In this document: positions 2,212-24,035 of the stretch, piece after piece
How the letters are laid out: each line of letters begins with the position of its first letter
Numbering within the stretch: the stretch's first letter is position 1
UHGV virus genome: UHGV-0145247
Source: a virus
DNA length: 25,993 bases
Strand: one strand, 5' to 3'
Made by a program: the position numbers and the translations under genes
The notes under the pieces: model-generated
What the model was told of the DNA's origin: nothing
Databases searched by the model: none
Seen by the model: only the letters and a program-made list of their open reading frames with translations

Positions 2212-2889
2212 TCATTCCCGGATGAGCCTGCTGATGTAATGAAAATGCGGCAGGGCCTGAATAAATCGCGGGTCTTCAAAAATTCGCCGGATATGATTGT
2301 TTCTGGTGAAGCCCCCGATGGTCATAACCACATCGGTGATGGCTGAAAGGGTAAATACCTGAATCCGCTCGCCAGTTATTGCCGTCAGGTACCACTCGCC
2401 TTCCAGACAGATAAGCCGGTAAGGGGCAACGGCGGACTGATGGTGTCCGTGGTGCAGAAAATGAATACGGCGACTGCTGATGATGGCCTGGATAATGACC
2501 TGAAAACCGCCAAACAACGCCGGAGCCTGACGGGGTGGCGTATTCCAGATAATGCAGGGGGAGTCTTGGCCGCTGTCGAGCAAGACCGACAACAATTTAG
2601 GGTCAAGTGCCGGAAAGTAATGTGCCACCTGGGTTATCTGGGCAAAGCGGATAATGTCGCAGTTAGTGCGAAAGGGGCCCCGTGCATCCCGCAGGCGAAA
2701 ATTACCCCCGGAATATTCCGTGTCGATATAGCGCAGGCGTTCACGCAGGTCGCGCTGCACGGTACGCTCAGAGACGCCAAACTCCTGAGCAAGTTGCCTG
2801 ACACTGAGCGTTTCTCCCATAAAGAGGCGGCTGACCAGTATGGCGAGACGGCTTGCCAGGCGGTCATAGCGTTGTTTCTGTTCAGACAT
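2212..2889 (-). CDS. HTH + WYL-domain transcriptional regulator (YfjR-like), 226 aa
   Basis: N-terminal HTH (LSVRQLAQEFGVSERTVQRDL), literal WYL motif (GEWYLTAI) in C-terminal half; start taken at internal ATG 2889 (MSEQKQ), the ORF-track start at 3120 is an antisense extension. Confidence 0.7.
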   Translation of the reverse strand: MSEQKQRYDRLASRLAILVSRLFMGETLSVRQLAQEFGVSERTVQRDLRERLRYIDTEYSGGNFRLRDARGPFRTNCDIIRFAQITQVAHYFPALDPKLLSVLLDSGQDSPCIIWNTPPRQAPALFGGFQVIIQAIISSRRIHFLHHGHHQSAVAPYRLICLEGEWYLTAITGERIQVFTLSAITDVVMTIGGFTRNNHIRRIFEDPRFIQALPHFHYISRLIRE

Positions 2890-2948: not shown

Positions 2949-3677
2949 TTAACGGGAAAGGTGCTGCTGTCTCAGCCAGGACACGATGATGCATGCGGGT
3001 ATCGTGACCCGATAAGCCGGACCGGTGATGTCGGAAATCATCCACGCTGAACTCAGGGCGATGGCAAGAGGACCAGCCAGAACGGAAAGAGCACGTGAAG
3101 CGACCACAACAGTTCCCCAAGTGGCAATGCCGCCCAGGGAGGTGATGACACTAGCAGACAACATCGTTGCCAGCTCGAGCGCAGCCAGCGAGGAAGTCCG
3201 GATGGCGGCCTGAACGGCGATAAGAATGAGTTGTGGCGTGGGGTTTGTCAGATCCAGATGCATATTGTGGGAGAAAGCAGCCAGCTCTTCTGGTGACATC
3301 TGATCCAAGCTTTTTTCCAGAACCTTCATCAACAGAGCAAGCTCAATGGTTTCGGTAGTACTTTTCTGGTTGTAATTCACATCAAGCTTGTCACAGACAT
3401 CAACGAGAATTTCCCGATAGGTCACGCCTTGCCCCAGCCGGACCAGGCTCGCCAGGGTATTCGCGCCGTAACGCTGAAGCTCAGCGGCTATCAGTTGCCA
3501 GTAGCGGCGATGGTCTGGTGCCAGCAGACGAAACTCCGGGGTTCCGGTAAGACTCTCTGTCCAACGAGTGTCGCCGTCTCGTGGGTCAGTGGTCAGGATG
3601 GAAATCAGCAATTGCAGTTCTTCATTGCTGCATTGGCCCAGCAGATTCAAATCAGGGTCATTACGGTAGACAGCCAT
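2949..3677 (-). CDS. Hypothetical protein (242 aa) with hydrophobic Ala/Ser/Gly-rich C-terminal region
   Basis: ORF with RBS GAGGA 7 nt upstream of ATG 3677; first gene of the WYL-regulator cluster. Confidence 0.55.
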   Translation of the reverse strand: MAVYRNDPDLNLLGQCSNEELQLLISILTTDPRDGDTRWTESLTGTPEFRLLAPDHRRYWQLIAAELQRYGANTLASLVRLGQGVTYREILVDVCDKLDVNYNQKSTTETIELALLMKVLEKSLDQMSPEELAAFSHNMHLDLTNPTPQLILIAVQAAIRTSSLAALELATMLSASVITSLGGIATWGTVVVASRALSVLAGPLAIALSSAWMISDITGPAYRVTIPACIIVSWLRQQHLSR

Positions 3678-3691
3678 TATCTATCCTCAGT

Positions 3692-3714
3692 CAGTGTGAT
3701 GTGAGGTCACACTG
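3692..3714. promoter_or_regulatory. Perfect palindrome CAGTGTGA-N7-TCACACTG, candidate operator or 5'-UTR hairpin
   Basis: 8-bp perfect inverted repeat 15-37 nt upstream of the start codon at 3677. Confidence 0.35.
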
Positions 3715-4282
3715 TAAAAGGGGCTATTGCACGGATGTGTCGTCAGAAATGGTTAATATATGCTCTATGGAAAGATATACGGACAGGGTGTGGCTGGAAA
3801 AATAGGGGAGGAACCAAACAGCTATAACGATTTTTATCGTGCCTGAGTGTTATCAATATAACGATAATGGCTAGTGAGTTTGTTTTTTTTGCTGCTTTAG
3901 GGTGATTATATATTTCCCAAATATTAATGAGCTTACATTTGTTTCTTTTGCTGCGTGTTGTTTCGTAGTATTAGGTAATCGATGCCTTCCACTTTGATGG
4001 CTAACGACAATTTTAATTTTAGTACTATAGTTTATTTATGGAGAAGTGATTGAAGTATAAAAGAGAGGTCTTGCTGAGTAAGGCTTCAGGAAGGTATCCG
4101 TTTGGAACGTAATAGGAAAGGTGGCAAAGTGTATGATGATGCCACCTTTCTAATATGTTAAATCTGACCTCTTTGTGTTAACAATAGGCCGGTTTTGTCC
4201 ATTTTTCAGTTGAAAGAAAGCCGGATTTAGCTGACTTTAGCTGTCCCAGGTAAGGTGCCAGATGCTAGTACGCAACTTACCA

Positions 4283-5497
4283 TTAGAAGTGATGTGGTAT
4301 GATTAAAACCCCATGTTTGTCCAAAGGCGGCACTGTGAAAAATGAATTGTAAAATAAAATACATGACTCCTGATTGTGTAAGTCTATTTGGAAATAACGG
4401 GATACATACCGTTCCAGAATGTTTTGATAATAATCATGGTTTAATTTTTCTTTATTCCTAGCTCGTTCAATTATGTCTTCGTGCAGACTTGAAAATACCT
4501 CAATTAAGTCATCCTTATCCCCATTTAACATGGCATGAAAAGCAGCAGCAGCAAATAACTCATTTGCAGGACCTGCAGACAGCCAGTGACTGCTTTCAAT
4601 AGAATTAATGGACTCCCTCAAACGCCAGAGACCCAAGCGCATTGCCTGATCGTTTAAAAGTTTCAGTAATGGTGGATAAGCATAAATGTCCGTACCAAAC
4701 AGCCTGCGTGGTACACTCAGATCTGCAAAGGTCACATGTTTTACAGAGGCTAGCGCTTCCTGTATTTCATCCTGACCATATTGCATCGTGAGCGCCTTTA
4801 ATAACGTCGATTTTACAGGCAGGGGAGAACCTGCCGCTTTTATGCCGCTGAACGTTCCTCGGGTTTTGCTCACGGGAATAGTGTCCTTCATCATCCTGTT
4901 AATCAACGCAGGGGCAATAATGATGTTATCCGCTGTATTGGCCCCCCCTTTGGAATTCGGATATATGTGACATAACTCCAGCTCCAGCCAGGGTATCAGG
5001 CGTTTAATAACCTGCCCCTGTGAATCAATAACCCTTTGCCCATTTAGAGTATTGTAAGCTTTCTGGTAGTCTGCTTTGCGCTGGTACAACCGGATGAGAT
5101 CAGCAATGTCATCAGGGCTGGTGATACTTCCCAGCCCGAGGGGATTATTCTTTAGCTTGGACTCCACGTTGATCCAGTAAGAATGTTTTACCAGACTGAC
5201 AATGGCATCGTCATCTATGAGCCTTCTATCTTTATTACGATGCCCAATACAACAATACCGTTGATTGCGAGTACCAGACAGGCTAATACCACAGGGCGGG
5301 TACTGACACGTCAGATTCCACCTTTGCGCTCTTTTAGCTGCATTAGAAAGCTTACCCTGATAATGTACAGAACATAAGCGGAATTTACGCTCATCAGGTA
5401 ATTCACCAATTGAGAGCGTACAGTTATTTCTTTTACAAATAGCCATAATAAGACTCTTATCACAGTTAATCATGTTGCATGATAAATAAATAGCCAC
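4283..5497 (-). CDS. HNH nuclease-domain protein with Cys-rich N-terminus (404 aa)
   Basis: Cys pairs in first ~110 aa, then HNH-like motif ELELCHIYPNSKGGANTADNIIIAPALINR; AT-rich gene between AT-rich spacers; GTG start at 5497 without clear SD, alternative ATG at 5473. Confidence 0.6.
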   Translation of the reverse strand: MAIYLSCNMINCDKSLIMAICKRNNCTLSIGELPDERKFRLCSVHYQGKLSNAAKRAQRWNLTCQYPPCGISLSGTRNQRYCCIGHRNKDRRLIDDDAIVSLVKHSYWINVESKLKNNPLGLGSITSPDDIADLIRLYQRKADYQKAYNTLNGQRVIDSQGQVIKRLIPWLELELCHIYPNSKGGANTADNIIIAPALINRMMKDTIPVSKTRGTFSGIKAAGSPLPVKSTLLKALTMQYGQDEIQEALASVKHVTFADLSVPRRLFGTDIYAYPPLLKLLNDQAMRLGLWRLRESINSIESSHWLSAGPANELFAAAAFHAMLNGDKDDLIEVFSSLHEDIIERARNKEKLNHDYYQNILERYVSRYFQIDLHNQESCILFYNSFFTVPPLDKHGVLIIPHHF

Positions 5498-5664
5498 TCA
5501 TTAATCATGATCATAATTGATGGTATTTTTTAATATATCGTTAGTAATTAAGATGTTTATGTCTCAAATGAATCTGAAATATACTAGTGGTTTAATAATA
5601 AATTAATTGTTAGTGCTCTTTTTATCACGTGGCATTGCTAAGTGGGCAGCAGATAATGCTGCAT

Positions 5665-5898
5665 TTATGGTTGTTCGGCAATAGTAGTTGATGATGCCAG
5701 ATGACGTTTCAGCAACCACTCATCCAGTTCAGACTCAAGCCAGCCGACAGATTGCATGCCTAGGCGACGTTGTTTAGGGAATGTGGCGTCATATCGTGGT
5801 GACATGGGGTTAATCCAGTCGTAGATGGTAGAACGGGCTACGCCTATCTTGTTGACAACACTAGACATACGCAGGATTTTAATGTGTTGAGTGTTCAT
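5665..5898 (-). CDS. alpA: AlpA-family transcriptional regulator / excisionase-like protein (77 aa)
   Basis: Resembles E. coli AlpA (ATIYDWINPMSPRYDATFPKQRRLG...SVGWLESELDEWL). Confidence 0.8.
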   Translation of the reverse strand: MNTQHIKILRMSSVVNKIGVARSTIYDWINPMSPRYDATFPKQRRLGMQSVGWLESELDEWLLKRHLASSTTIAEQP

Positions 5899-6023
5899 AC
5901 CGATTTGTTCCTTGTTGGCCCTGTATGGATGGGGCTAACTTTACCGAGAGGGCAAAATGGGATCCAGATATGTACCAAAAGTAAAAAAAAACTGTGGAAT
6001 GTGACGTTTTAAGAGAGGTTGGG

Positions 6024-6740
6024 ATGACAGACGATAGTGTTCTGGATGGCATTTTTGATTCAGTAAAGAGCGAAGCTGAGCGTTTTATATCGTGCTACAG
6101 CGGTAGTGATGATGTCAGTAGTTACAATGAACTCCGTGACCGGTGCGAGAGTAAAGCAAAAGAAAAAATTAATAAATTCAAGGAGGAAGGCTGCCACATC
6201 CTGGATGATGATTTTGAATGCATGCTTTACGATGCTAATTTTTCTGCACAATGGAATGGAAAGTTTGGAACGTATCTTGCCATTGCATTCTTCTTTTACC
6301 ACTGGGGGCAGTATTGTTATTCCTCTGGGCACCGGCGTGAAGGATTGCTATTTATGGCAAGAGCAGCTGGTTGTGGTGGAGTCTGGCAGGGGGCTGGGCT
6401 ATACGCTGACCGTGTAGAGACTGCTGAATTGGCGTTAAAGAAAAAGCAAGATCATGGAAAGAAGGGAGGAGAGGCTACTGGCTTGGCTTTAGCACCCGCA
6501 CGGGATGAGTTGAAGCGGTTGCTTAAAATAAACTGCCCGGCAGAAGGATGGAAAACTAAAACTGCAGCAATCGGTGCCGTTGTAGATCAACTTGAGGTTT
6601 TTGTTAAAAAACACAAAATAAATTTGAAAACCGATAATCTTGATAATGCCATATTAACATGGTGTAAGAGATATGATGATTTACGAGACGTATTGGAGAG
6701 TTCTTTAAAAAAGAACATGAAAAATAACCGCGTGGGTTGA
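6024..6740 (+). CDS. Hypothetical protein (238 aa), AT-rich, between alpA and integrase
   Basis: RBS AGAGAGG before ATG at 6024; no recognised motif; opposite strand to flanking genes. Confidence 0.55.
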   Translation: MTDDSVLDGIFDSVKSEAERFISCYSGSDDVSSYNELRDRCESKAKEKINKFKEEGCHILDDDFECMLYDANFSAQWNGKFGTYLAIAFFFYHWGQYCYSSGHRREGLLFMARAAGCGGVWQGAGLYADRVETAELALKKKQDHGKKGGEATGLALAPARDELKRLLKINCPAEGWKTKTAAIGAVVDQLEVFVKKHKINLKTDNLDNAILTWCKRYDDLRDVLESSLKKNMKNNRVG

Positions 6741-6913
6741 TTTTACCCATATGGACATTGGGACGTTGGCATCGTGGTGAAGGAGTACATTAATTAGCCG
6801 AAATCGTGAAGTATCTGCCTATGTGCAATTCGCTTTTTAAGATGGAATCCACGCCGTCTTCATAGACGGCGGAACTTTAACTAAACTGCAACTAAACATT
6901 GTTGGTATCTTCC

Positions 6914-8155
6914 TCATCCAACGAGCCGCATTCCTTTTATCCCCTCCTCAATGATAGTTCCGCGATCTGCAGCCATCACGAAGTCAGCCCACCATTGCAT
7001 CATAGGTCGCCGCTGTTCCAGATAATCGCTGCGATTGTAAGCTCGTCGTACCTCATTTTTGTCCACATGAGCAAGTGCGGCTTCAATGACATCAGGTGGA
7101 AAACCTTGCTCATTGAGTGCTGTGCTGGCGATAGAACGCAGGCCGTGAGAAACGAGTACGCCTCCTAAGCCAGCACGCTTAAGTGCGGCATTAACTGTTT
7201 GGCTGTTCATTGGCTGGGTTGGTTTGATGCGACTGGGAAAGATAAACTCTCGGCCACCGCTGAGGGACTTCATCACTTCCAGAATTGAGATAGCCTCATC
7301 TGATAGTGGAACCGTATGGTCTCGGTTCATCTTCATTCGAGCTGCTGGAATTTTCCATTCGTTAGCATCAAAATCGATCTCATCCCATCGTGCCTCAGCG
7401 GCTTCGGCAGGGCGGGTAATGGTGAGAAGCTGCCACATGAACAAGCACCGCGTTGACATACTGATACTTGCCGTACGCATAGTCTGCATTAGCTGCGGAA
7501 GTTGATCCGGGCGGATGCTTGGCATGTTTTTCTTTTGCGGTTTCTCAAATGCTTTTCCGATATTTACACTGGGAACTGCATCAATCAGGCCTGTGTTCTG
7601 CGCATAAATCATGACTTCGTTAATACGCTGACAAAGGCGGCGAACAGTCTCTAATGCACCTCTGGCCTGAACCGGCTGAACAGCTTTAACTAGAGTATGA
7701 GCCTTAATCTCAGTGACACTAATATCACCGATTGCTGGGAAAACATCTCTCTCAAGCGAGCGCCAGATATCGTCGGCATAGTCCTCTGTTACGCTGGCTT
7801 TCTTCACATTCCACCAACGCTCGGCAACTAACAGGAAAGTGTTGGTTTTAGCCTCTTGAGAATTTCTTACCTGTTCTTTCTGATGTTCCTGAGGATCAAT
7901 GTCTTTCGCCAACAAAACTCGAGATTCAGCTCTGAGTTTACGCGCATCAGAAAGGGAGACAGCAGGGTAGGCACCGAAGCTCTGTTTGGTTCGCTGTTTT
8001 GTCAGCGGTCGATAGTAACGGAACTGCCAGAGCTTACTACCACTGGACTTGATTAATAGAGTAAGCCCGTCACCATCATACAGCTGGTAATCGGCATCTT
8101 TAGGTTTGGCGGCTTTGATTTCCGTATCGGTTAACGGCTTGGTTTTTCTTGCCAT
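6914..8155 (-). CDS. intA: Tyrosine recombinase, P4-type integrase (IntA-like, 413 aa)
   Basis: N-terminus MARKTKPLTDTEIKAAKPKDADYQLYDGDGL typical of P4-family integrases; RBS GGAG 8 nt upstream of ATG 8155. Confidence 0.9.
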   Translation of the reverse strand: MARKTKPLTDTEIKAAKPKDADYQLYDGDGLTLLIKSSGSKLWQFRYYRPLTKQRTKQSFGAYPAVSLSDARKLRAESRVLLAKDIDPQEHQKEQVRNSQEAKTNTFLLVAERWWNVKKASVTEDYADDIWRSLERDVFPAIGDISVTEIKAHTLVKAVQPVQARGALETVRRLCQRINEVMIYAQNTGLIDAVPSVNIGKAFEKPQKKNMPSIRPDQLPQLMQTMRTASISMSTRCLFMWQLLTITRPAEAAEARWDEIDFDANEWKIPAARMKMNRDHTVPLSDEAISILEVMKSLSGGREFIFPSRIKPTQPMNSQTVNAALKRAGLGGVLVSHGLRSIASTALNEQGFPPDVIEAALAHVDKNEVRRAYNRSDYLEQRRPMMQWWADFVMAADRGTIIEEGIKGMRLVG

Positions 8156-8165
8156 GGGGAATCTC

Positions 8166-8200
8166 CATGCGTTTAGGCCCAACGAAAACAATAGAGCTTT
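8166..8200. other. Perfect 13-bp stem hairpin (GGCCCAACGAAAA / TTTTCGTTGGGCC, 9-nt loop) just upstream of integrase start
   Basis: Inverted repeat read directly from sequence. Confidence 0.5.
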
Positions 8201-8276
8201 TCGTTGGGCCTATCAATGGGCCTAAAAGGTTCGGATTTAATTAGTTCTCTTCGGACTTCGCGGGACAAATTCAAGG

Positions 8277-8310
8277 CACAAAAAAGCCCGCAGGGCTTGC
8301 GCCGTGCGGG
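8277..8310 (-). terminator. Rho-independent terminator on minus strand, downstream of the ssrA 3' end
   Basis: GCCCGCA / TGCGGGC stem (8285-8291, 8304-8310) followed on minus strand by T6. Confidence 0.5.
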
Positions 8311-8358
8311 CTCTTAGGACTTCATCGGATGACTCTGGTAATCACCGATGGAGAATTT

Positions 8359-8394
8359 TGGTGGAGCTGGCGGGAGTTGAACCCGCGCCCGAAA
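8359..8394 (-). other. ssrA: 3'-terminal fragment of tmRNA gene ssrA (att core shared by the two elements)
   Basis: Minus strand reads ...CGGACGCGGGTTCAACTCCCGCCAGCTCCACCA, matching the 3' end of E. coli tmRNA with one mismatch; similarity stops after ~36 nt. Confidence 0.8.
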
Positions 8395-8451: not shown

Positions 8452-9642
8452 TTACGGCTCCTTTGAGGTTCCACCGCTGACCAGCTTGGGTCGTTTTTCA
8501 GTGTTGCCGTCATACTCCTTCAGATAGCGTCCATAATGCCTGAACAACATTTCTGGCCCTTTATGTCCCATCTGTGATGCCAGCCAGAACAGGTTAGCGC
8601 CTCGACTTATATGTCGGGTCGCGAACGTATGCCTGGTCTGGTATGGATTGCGGTACCTGATCCCAGCTTTACGTAAAGTTGGCACCCAGGCTTTCTTTCT
8701 TATCGCATCGGCACCCGCCCATGGTTTTTCTGTCTTAGGATCCTCAAAGATCGTTGCATCTTTCATAAAGGTGAAAGGCTTCTGAGAAGTCAGGGCATAC
8801 AAGGCTTCTTCGGTCAACTCAACTTTACGTGTTCCAGCTTTAGTTTTCGTGCCCTTAATTACCCCCACTACGCTGGCATTTTGCACATGCGCTGTTTTGC
8901 CGATAAAGTCGATATCGCGCCAACGGAGGGCGCAGAGTTCAGAACTACGTAGCCCGGTTTCAATTGCAAAGCGGAATATGTTTTCCCACTGCTTATTACC
9001 CGCAGCATGCAAAAGCGCTTCAACCTCGGCCGGTGAAAGCGGATCAACAATATAATCACTTTCATCCTCGGTTTTACTGCTCTGGTAGCGCGAGGCTGTC
9101 ACCAGTGAAACAGGGTTAATCTGCAATACACCATCAGTCACAGCTTCATCCAGTGCTGAGCGTAGGAATGAAAGTTGGTTCCTAATCGTCTTTAATGTCG
9201 TTTTCTGACTCTGGATCCATGTTTTTAAAGCAGCAGGTGTTAATTCGCTGGCAGGAAAAACGTGAAGTGATGCCAGAGCATTTAAACATTTCTTATATCC
9301 GCCGATTGTTGAAGGAGATAATTTTCTCGTTTCACAAATTACAAGATATTCATCGAGATAATTTTTTACCGTTTTTCCTGTTGAAGCATTACCAAATATT
9401 TTAAGTCGTGCCGAACGGGGAAAGTGTTCACCATAATTGAATGTACCACGCTCAATTTTATTGTGAATTTCGCCGAGTGTTCGCTCGGCGTATTTAAGGT
9501 TTTTGCTATTAACTTCAAGGTTTGATAAAGGTTCCCGGCATTTCACCCCCTTATAGGTAAAGGTAATATTGATAGTTTCCCCAGTACTATGTTTCCTGAT
9601 CGTTACGCCGCGCGGGAGTTTAGGCGATTTTGTCGAGCCCAT
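8452..9642 (-). CDS. int: Phage integrase, tyrosine recombinase (396 aa)
   Basis: C-terminal catalytic region (RHTFATRHISRGANLFWLASQMGHKGPEMLFRHYGRY); next to att core. Confidence 0.9.
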   Translation of the reverse strand: MGSTKSPKLPRGVTIRKHSTGETINITFTYKGVKCREPLSNLEVNSKNLKYAERTLGEIHNKIERGTFNYGEHFPRSARLKIFGNASTGKTVKNYLDEYLVICETRKLSPSTIGGYKKCLNALASLHVFPASELTPAALKTWIQSQKTTLKTIRNQLSFLRSALDEAVTDGVLQINPVSLVTASRYQSSKTEDESDYIVDPLSPAEVEALLHAAGNKQWENIFRFAIETGLRSSELCALRWRDIDFIGKTAHVQNASVVGVIKGTKTKAGTRKVELTEEALYALTSQKPFTFMKDATIFEDPKTEKPWAGADAIRKKAWVPTLRKAGIRYRNPYQTRHTFATRHISRGANLFWLASQMGHKGPEMLFRHYGRYLKEYDGNTEKRPKLVSGGTSKEP

Positions 9643-9889: not shown

Positions 9890-10060
9890 TCATAGCGGTG
9901 AATCATCCCCCAGCTTCGCCTTTAAATCGCCAGTGACAAACCAGGCTGGAATTTCTCCGGCATTATTAGAGGATCGCCCCTGCGGTGAGGTGAATGACCC
10001 ACGCACGGGAATTAGTTTGATGAGGCTGACACATCGGCCAATTTCTTCAATGGTGCGCAT
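9890..10060 (-). CDS. Small ORF (56 aa), translationally coupled to upstream gene
   Basis: ATG overlaps the stop of the 347-aa gene (TGATG), RBS GGAGG upstream; below ORF-track cutoff. Confidence 0.3.
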   Translation of the reverse strand: MRTIEEIGRCVSLIKLIPVRGSFTSPQGRSSNNAGEIPAWFVTGDLKAKLGDDSPL

Positions 10061-11103
10061 CACTTCACCTCCTGCGGGGCGGCTGCGAAGTGATTAATGG
10101 CCTTATCCCAGATTTCTTTGATGGTGGTCCAGTCAATCGGCATGGTGCTCGTCCAGGTTCCCTCGCCGCTGCAGTCGTCGCACCCTTCACCAAAACACTC
10201 ATGGCATGTCAGCGTATATTCAAGATTGAATTCCCCGAGAAGCGCTGCTTTTGCACCGTTCTCAGCGGTTAGCCTCATCGGCACCATCACGTACCCCTCT
10301 GGAATTACCGTGGAGTTGCTAGCATTTGGATGCAGAGCGCGAATCCCTTCGGCTAATTCTTCCAGGGTGGATGAATATCCGCGCTGGGCATCATTGCCGA
10401 ACTCGAACGCTCCGGTATCAGGATTAGACCATCCATGCTCGCTGTCGTATGCCTCACGCTGCTTATCTATCCATTTGGCGGCGGCTTCAATGCCATCGCG
10501 ATAGAAAGTGACTACTGGCGCTGGCTGCTCTTTGATGTGCAAGCGAGGTTCACCGTCTTTCGGCTCAGGCCATTCGCGCTGTTTGTTCACTGCCAGCTTT
10601 TCGATCATCGCCTGGGTAATCTGTTCGTCGGTGATACCGGCACGACGCTGGGCATCCCACATCAGGAATTGCATATCAGCCCACTCCGACAGGTCATCTG
10701 GTTCCGCTGCGGCCTCCATAGCCTCTTTTGCCAGATGCTTCAGTGGTCCAACAGGGCCGACATTACCGAATGTTGCCTGTGACCACTCTGAGTGCTCGCG
10801 GCGTACCTGCTCTCGGTCCTTTGCTGGTTGCGCTGGCGGATAATTTGCCAGCATCCAACTAATGACGTAGTCGTCCTTGAACCGCTCAACCGGAAATCCT
10901 TCATTCCAGTCACGGAAGTGATAGATAACTTTTGCCAGCTCAGGTTGAAGCGCCACCGGCTCGTTGTCCATTGCGGCCAGCGCCATGCGAGACAGCTCCT
11001 CAGCCTCTTCAGCTGGCAGCATTACGTTGCTTCCGGCACCGTAGGTTTCACGCCATGATTTAATTTTTTCCAGGCGCTCTCTGGTTATGGTCGATTTGGT
11101 CAT
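10060..11103 (-). CDS. Phage early protein with DUF550-like domain (Ead/Ea22-like), 347 aa
   Basis: Motif HLAKEAMEAAAEPDDLSEWADMQFLMWDAQRRAGITDEQI resembles the DUF550 family seen in lambdoid early regions (from memory). Confidence 0.5.
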   Translation of the reverse strand: MTKSTITRERLEKIKSWRETYGAGSNVMLPAEEAEELSRMALAAMDNEPVALQPELAKVIYHFRDWNEGFPVERFKDDYVISWMLANYPPAQPAKDREQVRREHSEWSQATFGNVGPVGPLKHLAKEAMEAAAEPDDLSEWADMQFLMWDAQRRAGITDEQITQAMIEKLAVNKQREWPEPKDGEPRLHIKEQPAPVVTFYRDGIEAAAKWIDKQREAYDSEHGWSNPDTGAFEFGNDAQRGYSSTLEELAEGIRALHPNASNSTVIPEGYVMVPMRLTAENGAKAALLGEFNLEYTLTCHECFGEGCDDCSGEGTWTSTMPIDWTTIKEIWDKAINHFAAAPQEVK

Positions 11104-12561: not shown

Positions 12562-13065
12562 TCAAGACAGTTGCTCCACCTTGATGCCAGCGGCGGTCAG
12601 CGCCGCTAGAAATTCGTCAACTTCATCACGCATGTATATTCCAAGCTTCTCTCCGCCGACTGTGATATGCCCCGGCCGCATCGGTTTCACGGTGACGGTG
12701 CGGGACTCCAGCTCGGCGATGCGCTCTTTTGCCACCAATAATTCAGCAGCAATTTCACGCCAACTTTCATAACTGGCCTCAAGCTTGTCCCAATCAGGGT
12801 TGAAGTTGGCAAGCTCAGACAACTGGCCTTTCAGAAACGCATTACTCTTCTGCGCCTTCTCCAGCGCCTCTGCCATCTCAGCGCCAGCCGCTTTCCATGC
12901 CTCCCACATTCCCTCAAGCTCTGAGTCGTCATCGTCAACCTTATAGCCTTCCCCATCGCGCCAGTGCGACCAGCCAAAACGCGGCGGATTGCCGTTATGC
13001 TGGGTGCGCTCCCACCACGCTTCGAATTTCTCTCTCTGCGCCAGTTCGGTGATATCAGTTGTCAT
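12562..13065 (-). CDS. Hypothetical phage protein (167 aa)
   Basis: Acidic, coiled-coil-like ORF; start overlaps methyltransferase stop (ATGA). Confidence 0.55.
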   Translation of the reverse strand: MTTDITELAQREKFEAWWERTQHNGNPPRFGWSHWRDGEGYKVDDDDSELEGMWEAWKAAGAEMAEALEKAQKSNAFLKGQLSELANFNPDWDKLEASYESWREIAAELLVAKERIAELESRTVTVKPMRPGHITVGGEKLGIYMRDEVDEFLAALTAAGIKVEQLS

Positions 13066-13790
13066 GCTGCACGCTCCCGTTTAATCACCATGCGCTCGAA
13101 TGCGGTGCAAAATATTTCCGGATCTTTTTCTACGCCTATAAACCGGCGCCCTGATTGCTGACACGCAACGCCAGCAGTCCCGCTACCCATAGTGAAGTCC
13201 AGTACTGTATCGCCATGATTGCTGTAGGTTTCAATCAGGTATTTCACAAGCGCCAAAGGCTTTTGCGTTGAATGAAGAGCTTGTTTTTGCTTATCACTAG
13301 AGAATTTCTGCACATCTCGCGGATAGCGGCTTGTTGAATCGTAAGTGACTTTTTTCAACGCCTCGCCATAGACATCAGTATTCGGCGTGCCTCTTGTTGC
13401 AGTTTTTCTGGCGTGCCCATGCGTCATCTGTGGGTTGTATGTCGGCTGCTTTCTGTAAAAAACCTCAATATTTTCATGTGCACGAAGAGGTTGTTTTTTC
13501 GCATTCAGGAAACCTGTAGCGTGTGGCTTCTCCCAAATCCACTCCGACCGCCAGTCCCGCAGATTGCTGTTAATCAGCACGCTGGTGAACGGCTGAGCGG
13601 AAAACAGCACAATAGCGGCGCTGGGCTTAGCGATGCGGTAGAGTTGCTCCCACATCAGAGCCAAGTCGAGAACAGAATCCCAGCGGCACTGAGTGGTACC
13701 GTATGGGATATCAGCACATACCAGGTCAACGGTACCGCTGGCGATTTTCGGGAATACGTCGAAGCAATCTGCGTTGTGAAGGTAGATCAT
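13062..13790 (-). CDS. DNA methyltransferase, N6-adenine/N4-cytosine type (242 aa)
   Basis: Motif IV-like DIPYGT near N-terminus and AdoMet-binding DFTMGSGTAGVA near C-terminus. Confidence 0.8.
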   Translation of the reverse strand: MIYLHNADCFDVFPKIASGTVDLVCADIPYGTTQCRWDSVLDLALMWEQLYRIAKPSAAIVLFSAQPFTSVLINSNLRDWRSEWIWEKPHATGFLNAKKQPLRAHENIEVFYRKQPTYNPQMTHGHARKTATRGTPNTDVYGEALKKVTYDSTSRYPRDVQKFSSDKQKQALHSTQKPLALVKYLIETYSNHGDTVLDFTMGSGTAGVACQQSGRRFIGVEKDPEIFCTAFERMVIKRERAA

Positions 13791-18916: not shown

Positions 18917-19543
18917 TCAGAGCTCGTATTGAACGCCTTTAACCACACCAATAATGACGCAGTTACCATTGATGGCGATGTTAGGATAACGGGGATTTAG
19001 CGGGACAAGAAATTTTTGCGGACCGTCTACAACCAGTTTTTTGACCGTGGCCTCGTTGGTCCCATCTATTCGTGCAACTACAATCTTTCCATGAATGGGC
19101 TCAATGTCTGGATCAACGATGACCGTTGCGCCTTCAGGAATCGTGGGCAGTCCATTAGGATTTGTCATTGAGTCTCCCTTTACTTCAAGGGCAAACGAGT
19201 TATCGCTGATGCGGAGAGACGTTTCCACCCATTTTTCGGCATCATGCAAGACATCTTCAGGCTTTGATTCAGTGAATAATCCTGCTTGCACCCACGATAT
19301 CACGGGAACTTTTCGCATCTTAGTTATTAAGTTTCCCTCAAACTCAGTGCCAAAAAGTATGTAATCAATTGATGTATTGAAGAATTTTGCTAGTTTGGAA
19401 AGAGATTCCCCTCCTGGGACGTTTACATCCTTTTCCCAATACCCAACTGCGACATCACTGACCCCACAAAACTTCCCAAGCTCTTTTTGTGAGGTTCTGG
19501 TGATTCGCCTAAGCGATTTTATTCGTTGTCCGACAGTTTCCAT
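18917..19543 (-). CDS. cI: CI-like repressor (HTH + LexA-like S24 peptidase domain), 208 aa
   Basis: N-terminal HTH (TSQKELGKFCGVSDVAVGYWE), C-terminal S24-like region (EVKGDSMTNP...GKIVVARIDG); no SD before ATG, consistent with leaderless cI. Confidence 0.85.
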   Translation of the reverse strand: METVGQRIKSLRRITRTSQKELGKFCGVSDVAVGYWEKDVNVPGGESLSKLAKFFNTSIDYILFGTEFEGNLITKMRKVPVISWVQAGLFTESKPEDVLHDAEKWVETSLRISDNSFALEVKGDSMTNPNGLPTIPEGATVIVDPDIEPIHGKIVVARIDGTNEATVKKLVVDGPQKFLVPLNPRYPNIAINGNCVIIGVVKGVQYEL

Positions 19544-21367: not shown

Positions 21368-21547
21368 ATGCGAGAAGTTAACCGGAAGTTCAAAGACCAC
21401 TATGGCAATCCAGTCAGAGTTATCCGCTGGGAGCCTGAGACACGTCGTGTCATCTACCTGCGGGAAGGCTATTCCCACGAGTGCTTTAGCCCACTCGATC
21501 AGTTTCAACGCAAGTTCAGGGAAGTAGAGGGCAGCCATGAGCAGTAA
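21368..21547 (+). CDS. Small protein (59 aa), possibly DUF4222-like
   Basis: RBS GGAGGG 10 nt upstream of ATG; in-frame stop just upstream; overlaps start of replication gene; below ORF-track cutoff. Confidence 0.4.
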   Translation: MREVNRKFKDHYGNPVRVIRWEPETRRVIYLREGYSHECFSPLDQFQRKFREVEGSHEQ

Positions 21548-22448
21548 ATTACACGGCCTCGTATGGGAAGCATGCGCTTTCAAAGGGCTGATAATCTCAG
21601 AAATAGCGGTCATGGCTCGCCTGGCAGATTTCAGTAATGACGAAGGTGTGTCATGGCCAGCGGTAACCACTATTCAGCGACAGATCGGCGCCAAGAGCGA
21701 GAATACTGTCCGCAGTGCTATCAAAAAGCTTCAGGCTAAAGGCTGGCTGAAGAAGCAGGAACGGCGCGTGGGCGGAAAGAATAATTCGAACGTTTATAAA
21801 CTCAATGTTGACATGCTGGAACGTGCAGCAGCTGAAGCAAAAATTTTCTACGCAACGCCACGTGAACAATCAAAATTTGATGCCTCAGAATTTGAGGGTT
21901 CAAAATTTGATGGGTCAAATTCTGATGCCTCAAATAATGGGTCTGTACCCCCTCAAATATTGCGGGAGGACCCCTCAATGGTTGAAGGCGATCCGTCATT
22001 AGATCCGTCATTAGATCCGTCATCTAAAAAACCTTCTTGTCGGGCTCCTGCGGAACCCGACGATAAGCCGGATCCTGAAGTTGTTATCACCGATAACGCG
22101 ATCGAAGTTCTGGCACACCTGAATCTGGTCAGCGGTTCCCGTTACCAGAAATCTAAGACCTCACTGGAGAACATTCGCGCCCGCCTCCGCGAAGGTCATA
22201 CCGTTAGCGACTTGAAACTGGTAATCGACGTTAAGCATGAGCACTGGCATGGCAACGACGAGCAATACCAGTACATGCGACCCGAGACACTTTTCGGCCC
22301 TAAAAAATTCGAGGGATATCTGCAAAGCGCTATCCGCTGGGATGCTAAAGGCCGCCCGCCAAAGGAGTCGTGGGACAAAACCAGACCGCGGGATGTTAAT
22401 TCAATTAGTCCAGTACAAACCACAATTCCACGGGGGTTCCGGGGATGA
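21537..22448 (+). CDS. Phage replication initiation protein (lambda O-like), 303 aa
   Basis: N-terminal HTH-like region, internal iteron array at DNA level, position after cII-like gene. Confidence 0.7.
   Translation: MSSKLHGLVWEACAFKGLIISEIAVMARLADFSNDEGVSWPAVTTIQRQIGAKSENTVRSAIKKLQAKGWLKKQERRVGGKNNSNVYKLNVDMLERAAAEAKIFYATPREQSKFDASEFEGSKFDGSNSDASNNGSVPPQILREDPSMVEGDPSLDPSLDPSSKKPSCRAPAEPDDKPDPEVVITDNAIEVLAHLNLVSGSRYQKSKTSLENIRARLREGHTVSDLKLVIDVKHEHWHGNDEQYQYMRPETLFGPKKFEGYLQSAIRWDAKGRPPKESWDKTRPRDVNSISPVQTTIPRGFRG
21870..21944 (+). repeat. Five tandem 15-bp iterons (consensus TCAAAATTTGATGSS), putative phage origin
   Basis: Units at 21870, 21885, 21900, 21915, 21930; degenerate copies near 21953 and 21975. 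Confidence 0.6.
21993..22025 (+). repeat. Tandem 12-bp repeat CCGTCATTAGAT (2.75 copies)
   Basis: Direct tandem repeat adjacent to iteron array (encodes DPSLDPSLDPSS). Confidence 0.6.
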
Positions 22449-22903: not shown

Positions 22904-23085
22904 AGAAGATTTTGATAAGTCTCCGGCGCCTTGTGCGTTTGCATCACTGGCGTTACTGGTGGCAGCACGACGTTATTTTTCGCAGAAAATACGCACTCCT
23001 CAGAGATGACCTTTTCAGCTTTGATCGCCGTTACTGGTTACTGAGAGCACTTGTTGATGCTGATCAGCGCAGGGGAAAACTATGA
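22891..23085 (+). CDS. Small Arg/Trp-rich ORF (64 aa, GTG start)
   Basis: RBS GGAGG upstream of GTG; stop overlaps ATG of Dam gene (ATGA). Confidence 0.3.
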   Translation: MLRLKKILISLRRLVRLHHWRYWWQHDVIFRRKYALLRDDLFSFDRRYWLLRALVDADQRRGKL

Positions 23086-24035
23086 GTCAGGAAGTACAAG
23101 AAGCTATGACCGCAGAAGAGCAAACTTTGACAAAAACCATCAACCCTTATTGCCTGGCACTTGAGGAACTGCGCCAGCGCAGTGCGCATTATTTGAAAGA
23201 GGTTGGCGATCAATGGCGTACCCCTGATCTGCTGTTCTGGGGCGTTAACGCTATGTTTGGCCCGTTGGTACTGGACCTGTTTGCAGACGACAGCAATACA
23301 AAATGTCCGGCATGGTATACCGCTGAAGATAATGCGCTGACGCAGGACTGGTCTGGTCGTTTGGTAGAACTCGTAGGAGCGGCCTTTGCTAATCCGCCGT
23401 ACAGCCGTTCGCAGTACCATGAAAAACAAGCCATCACTGGCATGACTCATATTATGAACTATACCGCCGAGCAGCGTGAAAAGGGTGGTCGTTACATTTA
23501 CCTCGTGAAGTCAGCAACAAGTGAAACATGGTGGCCGGAATATGCCGATCACATCATGTTTATTCGTGGTCGTATTGGATTCGATCTCCCAACGTGGTTT
23601 GTGCCGGCCGACGAAAAGCAGAAGCCCACCAGCGCATTCTTTGCCGGGGCCATTGCGGTATTTGATAAGACCTGGCGCGGTGAACATTTTAGCTATATCG
23701 ATCGCGTTGAGCTGGAAGCAAAAGGGCGCGCAAGTATGGCGCTGGCTGAGTTTGCTGCAGGAAAATTCCTGTCACCAGTTTCGCCAGTTCAGTCTCCTGA
23801 AGTGATCATCCCTGATGCTGTTGCATCATTGGCTGAGCCTGAATCCCGGATCTGGCCACTGGAAGTTGGACTCGTCTTTGGACAGGTACAAGGCGCAGAG
23901 GATCTGGAGTTCTCCCAGCAGAACAAGCTGAAGGCCCACATTAACCAGTTGTGGCTGGAGCGCGTGCCCACCAGCGAAATCATCACCGTTGCTGGTGGGC
24001 TGGTCGGCAGCATGAGGGGGACCGCTCATGCGTGA
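23082..24035 (+). CDS. Phage-type DNA N6-adenine methyltransferase (Dam family), 317 aa
   Basis: WRTP motif near N-terminus and NPPY catalytic motif (AFANPPYS). Confidence 0.8.
   Translation: MSQEVQEAMTAEEQTLTKTINPYCLALEELRQRSAHYLKEVGDQWRTPDLLFWGVNAMFGPLVLDLFADDSNTKCPAWYTAEDNALTQDWSGRLVELVGAAFANPPYSRSQYHEKQAITGMTHIMNYTAEQREKGGRYIYLVKSATSETWWPEYADHIMFIRGRIGFDLPTWFVPADEKQKPTSAFFAGAIAVFDKTWRGEHFSYIDRVELEAKGRASMALAEFAAGKFLSPVSPVQSPEVIIPDAVASLAEPESRIWPLEVGLVFGQVQGAEDLEFSQQNKLKAHINQLWLERVPTSEIITVAGGLVGSMRGTAHA

Follow-up and report, generated by a model that had tools for sequence, protein, structure and literature searches.

A predicted zinc-finger HNH nuclease is encoded at a fixed position beside alpA in CP4-57-type islands

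INTRODUCTION

In the CP4-57 island of Escherichia coli K-12, the genes alpA, yfjI and yfjJ form a block that is followed by abpBA, yfjM and rnlAB. YfjI, a DUF3987 protein, strongly matches the PHROG family annotated as DNA helicase (E=5e-100). YfjJ contains YagK_YfjJ_C and REP_ORF2-G2P domains (29.9 bits versus a cut-off of 27.8) and weakly matches a 'replication initiation protein' PHROG. Here, we analyze a related island in a 25,993-nt stretch of DNA, UHGV virus genome UHGV-0145247 (the window). Beside alpA, this island carries what we predict to be a gene for a conserved, uncharacterised zinc-finger HNH-type DNA nuclease, hereafter the HNH gene. Our literature search on yfjI, yfjJ and the zinc-finger HNH protein returned nothing functional.

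In other elements, too, an integrase gene is accompanied by alpA. In the satellites termed PICMIs (phage-inducible chromosomal minimalist islands), a DUF3987 'primase' encoded downstream of alpA is required for the element to replicate normally (PMC10803314). According to the same study, int-alpA satellites have a replication gene with anti-competitor functions encoded downstream of it, and in PICMI-like elements the accessory and defence genes begin right after this gene. Mobile elements may also use HNH nucleases. As described in PMC10803314, citing Quiles-Puchalt 2014, and in PMC13612085, cos-packaging phages and capsid-forming phage-inducible chromosomal islands (PICIs) use a small HNH nuclease for packaging their own DNA, not for defence. 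Finally, a preprint on the Juk system (10.1101/2022.09.17.508391) describes JukA-WYL(-EcsC) arrangements as predicted immune modules and reports genes for WYL proteins, EcsC-like proteins and an uncharacterised HNH nuclease near jukA homologs.

The HNH gene was first noticed as a solitary open reading frame (ORF) in the variable cargo slot of the island, a slot equated with that of rnlAB in K-12, and was proposed to encode a defence nuclease (the original prediction). We find that the nuclease call holds and that the cargo call is not supported.

RESULTS AND DISCUSSION

The HNH gene holds a fixed position behind alpA

The window contains the int-proximal end of a CP4-57-type (ssrA-integrating) island. 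Its order is ssrA 3' end, intA, a yfjH-like gene, alpA, the HNH gene, a JukA-like gene, a WYL regulator gene, a YfjT-like gene and a DUF932 gene. This matches the CP4-57-type backbone at ssrA (int-yfjH-alpA...yfjR(WYL)-yfjT-DUF932(yfjQ)), and identity to the K-12 proteins is 94% for IntA, 62% for AlpA, 80% for YfjQ and 44% for YfjR.

We compared the window with 31 related loci that have upstream sequence and encode a family member with an intact active site (32–100% protein identity). In the window and in 31/31 of these loci, the HNH gene lies on the same strand behind alpA or a small ORF that is weakly AlpA-like. Two layouts are seen. The gene either follows alpA directly, at a distance of 177–301 bp, or follows an intervening DUF3987 helicase gene, as in half of the loci. 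Genes beyond it vary, being JukA-like/WYL, EcsC-like, a YfjP-like GTPase, or none. The HNH gene is the last constant member of an alpA-proximal block, fixed and lineage-specific. These data argue against a solitary gene in a variable cargo slot, as does the finding of the family in no phage genome and no unrelated context. Nor is the slot that of rnlAB. In terms of K-12, the HNH gene occupies the position of yfjJ, and rnlAB and abpAB lie after yfjJ.

The variable, defence-type slot of these islands is found elsewhere, between int and the yfjH-like gene. In the window this interval is empty, spanning 173 bp (6741–6913). In other loci it contains HamA with a DEAD helicase (Hachiman-like); a type I restriction-modification S subunit with AAA_21; Multi_ubiq/ThiF/BubE (Bil-like) with a UvrD-PDDEXK protein; SMC_N/MComp1/CTD2; or DNA_methylase/GmrSD_N/AAA_15-21. 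Distal island genes encode antirestriction, RadC, DUF932 and CbtA/CbeA proteins. No methyltransferase partner was found in the island, in line with the original prediction, and the two methyltransferase genes of the window (13062–13790, 23082–24035) belong to an adjacent lambdoid prophage.

The yfjH-like gene, which borders the defence-cargo slot, has homologs in all related loci but diverges extremely even among islands that are alike in other respects. Most of the encoded proteins are 16–37% identical to that of the window (89% in locus L022 and 99% in L038), and all that is kept among them is a C-terminal motif, GGE..RA...PVK.ELIRLL...EGWKTKT.

Active-site-intact family members do not co-occur with YfjJ in the loci compared

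No YfjJ homolog was found in any locus with an active-site-intact family member. P0085, a relative of full length whose active site is dead, directly adjoins a YfjJ-type gene and alpA, and two further inactive relatives also lie in AlpA-led units. We considered whether the HNH protein could itself be a YfjJ homolog or an HUH/Rep-type initiator and rejected the idea. Profile comparison by hhalign gave a probability of 1.6% for the family versus YfjJ, the HNH protein has no REP_ORF2-G2P match, and genomic position is all that the two have in common. Hence the likeness is of the sort 'may work like' and does not extend to family membership. A survey of alpA-yfjI-yfjJ in E. coli returned mostly K-12 derivatives and was uninformative.

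The protein contains a predicted, divergent HNH core

The original prediction pointed to an HNH-like motif, CHIYPNSKGGANTADNIIIAPALINR. It is present, and the call of a nuclease core is upheld by invariant His and Asn residues, by a domain profile and by a domain model. Residue numbers below follow the 387-aa form of the protein. In an alignment of 26 sequences, with identity down to 31%, His160, Pro163, Gly168, Asn170, Asn174, Asn183 and Arg184 are invariant. His160, Asn174 and Asn183 are strictly kept in all core members of a larger set of 51 sequences, down to ~24% identity. In the AlphaFold2 (AF2) model of the 387-aa protein (pLDDT 88.5, pTM 0.80), His160 ends a strand (156–160), Asn174 precedes a second strand (175–179), and Asn183 lies on a helix (180–186). 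This predicted layout of strands and helix is the HNH (beta-beta-alpha-Me) arrangement.

Scores against curated families are low. The protein falls below the Pfam cut-offs for HNH_5 (13.7 versus 27.5 bits) and HNH_4 (12.6 versus 22 bits), and NCBIfam models of IscB and Cas9d gave 12 bits versus cut-offs of 175–375. When 51 diverse members were scanned singly, HNH families were the sole recurrent match, with a best E of 0.0019 and always sub-threshold. Among PHROGs, the window protein weakly matches an HNH family over the zinc-finger-to-core region (E=0.018), and member P0043 weakly matches endonuclease VII (E=0.007). By these profile searches, the protein is a divergent branch that belongs to no curated HNH family.

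A domain-only profile searched against the PDB gave seven matches, 7/7 of HNH type and all aligned on the catalytic motif; they include EcoKMcrA (the top match, E=0.075), the Gme HNH endonuclease, Cas8f-HNH, Cas9 and EssD. In McrA, Gme HNH and Cas8f-HNH, it is the catalytic His that aligns with His160, and the Gme HNH alignment spans Asn174 and Asn183 as well. When the domain-only model was searched with Foldseek, each of the best 14 matches was an HNH nuclease, the Gme HNH nicking endonuclease among them, with E values of 0.1–1.3. The SpCas9 core superposes on the domain model at 1.1–1.6 Å over 29–36 columns. The core lacks the canonical CxxC zinc pairs, and the residue preceding the catalytic His is Cys or Ser, not Asp or His. 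Single scores are non-significant but the evidence is convergent, and we accept a predicted, divergent HNH-type catalytic core.

Predicted zinc fingers and a novel domain flank the core

As originally predicted, the N-terminus is Cys-rich. It resolves into two sets of putative metal ligands (see Table 1), of which the last, residue 69, is either His or Cys, and these residues are invariant or nearly so in the 26-sequence alignment (A1). From these two conserved Cys3-His/Cys sets we infer two zinc fingers, with zinc binding predicted. In profile comparisons they weakly resemble SBP, treble-clef, PLATZ and MYND fingers.

The C-terminal ~190 aa gave no match in Pfam, NCBIfam, PADLOC, PHROG, PDB sequences or Foldseek, which bears out the earlier remark that this region has no recognisable family and marks it as a novel domain. 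Searches of the protein with Pfam, NCBIfam, PADLOC, PHROGs, PDB profiles and Foldseek also detected no modification-reading domain of the McrA N-terminal, SRA, SBD or DUF262/GmrSD_N type. A novel reader domain is conceivable within the uncharacterised zinc fingers or C-terminal domain. Long relatives (550–701 aa) have N-terminal extensions that contain no Pfam domain.

The gene is conserved and co-diverges with alpA

Pairwise dN/dS ratios (ω) of the HNH gene range from 0.11 to 0.28, compared to 0.06–0.24 for neighbouring genes. Within the gene, ω is lowest in the HNH core (0.07–0.14), and the C-terminal domain has the highest dN. Judged by these ratios, the HNH gene is under purifying selection and is more than a chance ORF. 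Across 13 loci, which are non-independent, identity of the HNH protein correlates with that of AlpA (Spearman rho 0.90, p=2e-5); for DUF932, rho is –0.21. Taken together, these comparisons show an apparently functional gene that is inherited together with alpA.

Recombination breakpoints fall within and beside the HNH gene, indicative of allelic recombination. Between the window and L022, dS is 0.10 for alpA, 0.27 for the zinc-finger part of the HNH gene and ~0.8 for the rest of it. Between the window and L015, dS is 0.17 for the HNH gene and 0.58 for alpA, with yfjH saturated.

A small family of Enterobacterales

The family is confined to Enterobacterales and comprises 39 clusters at 90% identity. 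Among 1.84 billion proteins we found ~80 cluster representatives (~50 with E≤1e-10), and among 185,579 species-representative genomes, 17 loci. In clinical genomes of Klebsiella, Enterobacter and Citrobacter, the gene occurs on hundreds of contigs and is nearly always labelled 'hypothetical protein'. In 5,426 complete E. coli genomes there was no DNA match to the HNH gene at ~85% identity or more; matches to the island were limited to its integrase, its ssrA end and distal backbone genes. A tblastn search of phage genomes gave no match to the family. Four IMG/VR matches represent the same island adjoining prophages, and the lone plasmid match, a K. aerogenes record, represents the same island type.

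The most remote relatives lack the catalytic His. Some of these inactive relatives lie in tandem, as pairs of paralogs downstream of an AlpA-like gene (L012, 3204–6720, 701 and 447 aa; L036, 2020–4580, 395 and 438 aa), and their long forms have N-terminal extensions of 300–420 aa with no known domain.

Gene model and surrounding features

The ORF reported earlier is real: 4283–5497 on the minus strand, 404 aa when read from a GTG. Its homologs in the 39 clusters are mostly 385–387 aa long and start at the residue corresponding to Met18. A Shine-Dalgarno (SD)-like AAGAG lies 7 nt upstream of ATG 5446, and no ribosome-binding site precedes GTG 5497. For these reasons, the true gene most likely starts at ATG 5446 and encodes 387 aa (Table 1). 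Many public entries of the family are annotated as 285–296 aa, with an internal start and loss of the zinc fingers, or as 404 aa from the GTG. In L038, a 100%-identical IMG/VR copy (1697–2859), the gene is in two pieces in different reading frames, suggesting a frameshift or an assembly error.

Table 1. Features of the island end in the window
Feature	Coordinates	Strand	Description
WYL/HTH regulator gene	2212–2889	-	YfjR-like, 44% identical to K-12
JukA-like gene	2949–3677	-	PADLOC JukA, E=7e-64; DUF3944 and Cbp3-like chaperone domain
Conserved non-coding block	4095–4215	-	70–190 nt past HNH stop; 10–11 bp hairpin (4116–4126/4140–4150), then UUUCC; inverted repeat I1
Zinc-finger HNH nuclease gene (predicted)	4283–5446	-	387 aa; longest ORF to GTG 5497; homolog lengths, SD-like AAGAG, purifying selection, AF2 model
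C-terminal helical domain, aa 196–387	4286–4861	-	Conserved motifs ELFAVAxFHAxLxGDxD and FYNxFF; fastest-evolving part
HNH (beta-beta-alpha-Me) core, aa 146–195	4862–5011	-	His160 4967–4969, Asn174 4925–4927, Asn183 4898–4900
Tandem zinc-finger region (predicted), aa 1–76	5219–5446	-	C4, C9, C25, H28 and C47, C52, C65, H69; alignment A1
alpA-to-HNH spacer	5447–5664	-	GC 0.28; sigma70-like promoter match 5559–5532 (consensus match only); hairpin 5646–5662 just past alpA stop
alpA	5665–5898	-	77 aa regulator/excision activator; Pfam Phage_AlpA, E=1e-19; linked to HNH gene throughout
yfjH-like backbone gene	5994–6740	+	248 aa, divergent from alpA; hhalign versus K-12 YfjH, 97.6% probability
intA, P4-type tyrosine integrase gene	6914–8191	-	Pfam; 94% identical to K-12 IntA
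Integrase-ssrA intergenic region and ssrA 3' end (attachment-site copy)	8192–8394	-	Megablast versus E. coli intA/ssrA

AT-rich spacers flank the gene, as the original prediction had said. The downstream gap is 605 bp (3678–4282; GC 0.39), and the spacer on the alpA side is 218 bp counted from ATG 5446 or 167 bp from GTG 5497. GC is 0.43 for the HNH gene, versus 0.54–0.56 for the WYL, JukA-like and DUF932 genes.

Two non-coding blocks in the 605-bp gap remain ~70% or more identical despite saturation of synonymous sites in the flanking genes. The block past the HNH stop codon, kept in L001, L009, L015, L016 and L022, also carries the palindrome TTGTTAAC, and its hairpin shows one compensatory pair. 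It is probably a terminator or 3'-untranslated-region (3'-UTR) element of the HNH gene. The other block (3680–3800, minus strand) lies just upstream of the JukA-like start, contains ACACATCCGTGCAA.AG.CC..TTACAGTGTG, and could be a regulated promoter. Rfam returned no family at the gathering threshold, and a relaxed search only a chance sub-threshold match inside a coding region. Each clade has its own terminator-like hairpin past the HNH stop codon. Because the gap contains a hairpin/terminator and a conserved promoter-proximal region before the JukA-like gene, its organization indicates that the HNH gene and the JukA-like/WYL pair are separate transcription units. Beside the JukA-like gene we recognised no JukB-type partner, and the HNH protein matches neither JukB nor any other Juk model of PADLOC.

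On the other side of the island, neither ARAGORN nor Rfam finds a complete tmRNA gene at 8192–8394. Two elements lie in tandem at ssrA. Past intA and the 3' ssrA fragment comes a second integrase gene (8452–9642) and then the lambdoid prophage, which extends to ~25500. Prophage genes encode a dATP/dGTP pyrophosphohydrolase (10060–11103), an N6_N4 methyltransferase (13062–13790), a ParB-HTH protein, DUF2303, a CI-like repressor (18917–19543), a replication protein (21537–22448) and a Dam methyltransferase (23082–24035). The same Int2/IntA tandem is seen in the IMG/VR locus L037.

A possible role in processing island DNA

What might the HNH protein do? Our tentative preference, which we would not yet call probable, is that it is a nuclease of the alpA module that processes the island's own DNA. 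We lean this way because of the position of the gene, its co-inheritance with alpA, its exclusive context and a distribution complementary to that of YfjJ. The gene would be expressed with or after alpA once the island is induced. The zinc fingers, perhaps together with the C-terminal domain, would place the enzyme on DNA, and the HNH site would then nick or cut DNA in the induced cycle of the island, during replication initiation or transfer of the excised island. Such an enzyme would be a functional substitute for a YfjJ-type initiator. If it is a nickase or a very rare cutter, no immunity or methyltransferase partner would be required.

A more specific proposal, which we regard as unlikely, is that the protein represents a new non-HUH initiator nickase for island replication or mobilisation. 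Here, an AlpA-induced nick at a specific site would be followed by unwinding by the DUF3987 helicase or a host helicase. The HNH enzyme would have displaced the YfjJ/Gp2-type Rep in the Klebsiella and Enterobacter island lineage, and the HNH site would have decayed in relatives that keep YfjJ.

Several points weigh against a role in island processing. DNA cleavage by HNH enzymes is hydrolytic and involves no covalent tyrosyl intermediate, and we know of no HNH-type rolling-circle initiator or relaxase. Islands of the window type lack any helicase or primase and may not replicate. We considered a replication origin beside the HNH gene and rejected it: the 600-bp gap contains no iterons or tandem repeats, and its conserved block resembles a terminator or 3'-UTR instead. 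The correlation with AlpA can be explained by linkage of adjacent genes alone and is no proof of shared function, and complementarity with YfjJ rests on few independent contexts. Finally, a position after the replication gene would also fit a conserved accessory gene, by analogy to PICMI-like elements (PMC10803314).

Defence and other explanations

This last point is among those that speak for the role first proposed. The protein could be a long-resident, stand-alone nuclease directed against phages or plasmids, either dependent on DNA modification and thus Type IV-like, in the manner of McrA, or silenced by its C-terminal domain and released on a phage cue, in abortive-infection style. Type IV enzymes (EcoKMcrA, ScoMcrA) are the best sequence and fold matches of the core; the DNA is AT-rich and horizontally acquired; and the island contains no methyltransferase or immunity partner. 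A fast-evolving C-terminal domain and allelic recombination inside the gene would also fit. The surroundings are suggestive as well, in that many defence genes occur in the island family, a JukA-like/WYL pair adjoins, K-12 has abpAB and rnlAB in the equivalent region, downstream of yfjJ, and int-alpA elements have their accessory genes immediately behind the replication genes. However, no known modification-reading domain was detected, and PADLOC, whose models do not include the family, yields only noise (AbiEi, E=0.0012 over 39 residues; Cmr6). The HNH gene is never found in the int-yfjH slot, in another mobile element or in a defence island, and it would be unusual for defence cargo to keep strict synteny with alpA down to 32% identity. 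No arms race is apparent from the overall ω, and remote relatives hold the position yet lack the catalytic His. We consider a defence function possible but doubtful, and the evidence gathered does not favour it over a role in the life cycle of the island.

An AlpA-induced nuclease might instead cut or nick the genome of a helper or competitor, phage or plasmid, to the benefit of the island. The anti-competitor functions encoded past the replication gene in int-alpA satellites (PMC10803314) offer a precedent, and the constant linkage to alpA, the helicase gene in half of the loci and the intact nuclease core are all compatible with such interference. It is nonetheless distinctly unlikely, given that the island has no packaging or capsid-redirecting genes, that its distal genes (antirestriction, RadC, DUF932, CbtA/CbeA) are unlike those of a phage satellite, that no helper is known and that nothing points to a foreign target.

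We also asked whether the protein is a nuclease at all. Every curated HNH model scores sub-threshold, the CxxC pairs and the usual Asp or His before the catalytic residue are missing, and remote His-less relatives persist in alpA-led units, all of which could describe an alpA-module protein that binds DNA in a regulatory or structural capacity and has a fold merely derived from HNH. But strict conservation of His160, Asn174 and Asn183 to ~24% identity is hard to explain without catalysis, and ω of the core is the lowest in the protein. An inactive protein is thus very unlikely.

Highly improbable is the notion that the HNH protein serves as a Juk-like effector, taking the place of JukB alongside the JukA-like sensor and WYL regulator. 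It draws on the strong JukA match of the neighbour, on the HNH genes reported near jukA homologs (10.1101/2022.09.17.508391) and on the joint presence of HNH and JukA-like/WYL genes in loci of the window and L005 types. An obligatory pairing of JukA with its effector is not what we see, since about half of the loci (L002/3, L018–L027, L011) have the HNH gene with no JukA-like or WYL gene. The hairpin/terminator and conserved promoter-proximal region in the 600-bp gap, together with the clade-specific hairpin past the gene, likewise point to separate transcription units.

That the gene is a free-standing HNH homing endonuclease, spreading selfishly into cognate sites of related islands, is scarcely credible despite its HNH core, lack of a partner, AT-rich DNA and nearby recombination breakpoints, because it holds one fixed position and diverges like its neighbours rather than being sporadically present, its length and three-domain architecture are unlike those of phage HNH homing enzymes, and its similarity to phage proteins is limited to the core motif.

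The choice between these explanations matters. A defence nuclease would constitute a new system made up of one gene, whose sensor or specificity domain is novel. An alpA-module DNA-processing enzyme would shed light on how the very common CP4-57-type islands, carriers of many defence systems, replicate or move, and would bring HNH into a role that HUH/Rep-type proteins have filled so far. A methodological lesson also emerges. Because the island carries defence cargo, guilt-by-association scoring would label the gene as 'defence', and in islands of this sort the backbone has to be told apart from the cargo.

Comparison with known systems

EcoKMcrA and ScoMcrA provide the best sequence and fold matches to the core (McrA LEVHHVIPLSSGGADTTDNCVA versus HNH protein LELCHIYPNSKGGANTADNIII), although these matches are non-significant (E 0.075–0.7) and cover only ~20–40 residues. 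McrA lies on the e14 prophage. Like McrA, the HNH protein is a predicted nuclease consisting of a single polypeptide, encoded on an integrated element with no methyltransferase. Unlike McrA, it has a central rather than C-terminal HNH core, no CxxC pairs, two predicted N-terminal zinc fingers and a novel 190-aa domain, and unlike Type IV enzymes it has no detected 5-methylcytosine-, SRA- or phosphorothioate-reading domain.

The Gme HNH nicking endonuclease (PDB 4h9d) aligns across the whole motif, including the helix Asn. Gme HNH and the HNH domains of Cas9, IscB and Cas8f-HNH share the same core, and those enzymes cut one strand. Here, the likeness is confined to the core, with scores far under the family cut-offs, and neither a guide RNA nor a partner is implied. 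His-Me finger nucleases of the T4 endonuclease VII type likewise combine zinc-binding cysteines with a His-Me core; matches to them are non-significant, the architecture is different, and there is no sign of junction-resolving activity. The HNH genes of cos phages and PICIs adjoin terS/terL, encode proteins of ~100–130 aa and belong to canonical HNH families, whereas the island contains no terminase or capsid gene.

The closest counterpart by location is the YfjJ/YagK family (NCBI 'inovirus Gp2 family'; YagK_YfjJ_C plus REP_ORF2-G2P). Its members have a predicted HUH/Rep-type domain in place of a hydrolytic HNH core and share no sequence similarity with the HNH protein. Yet they occupy the same slot, as the last gene of an alpA-(DUF3987)-X block, and their distribution is complementary to that of the active-site-intact HNH members.

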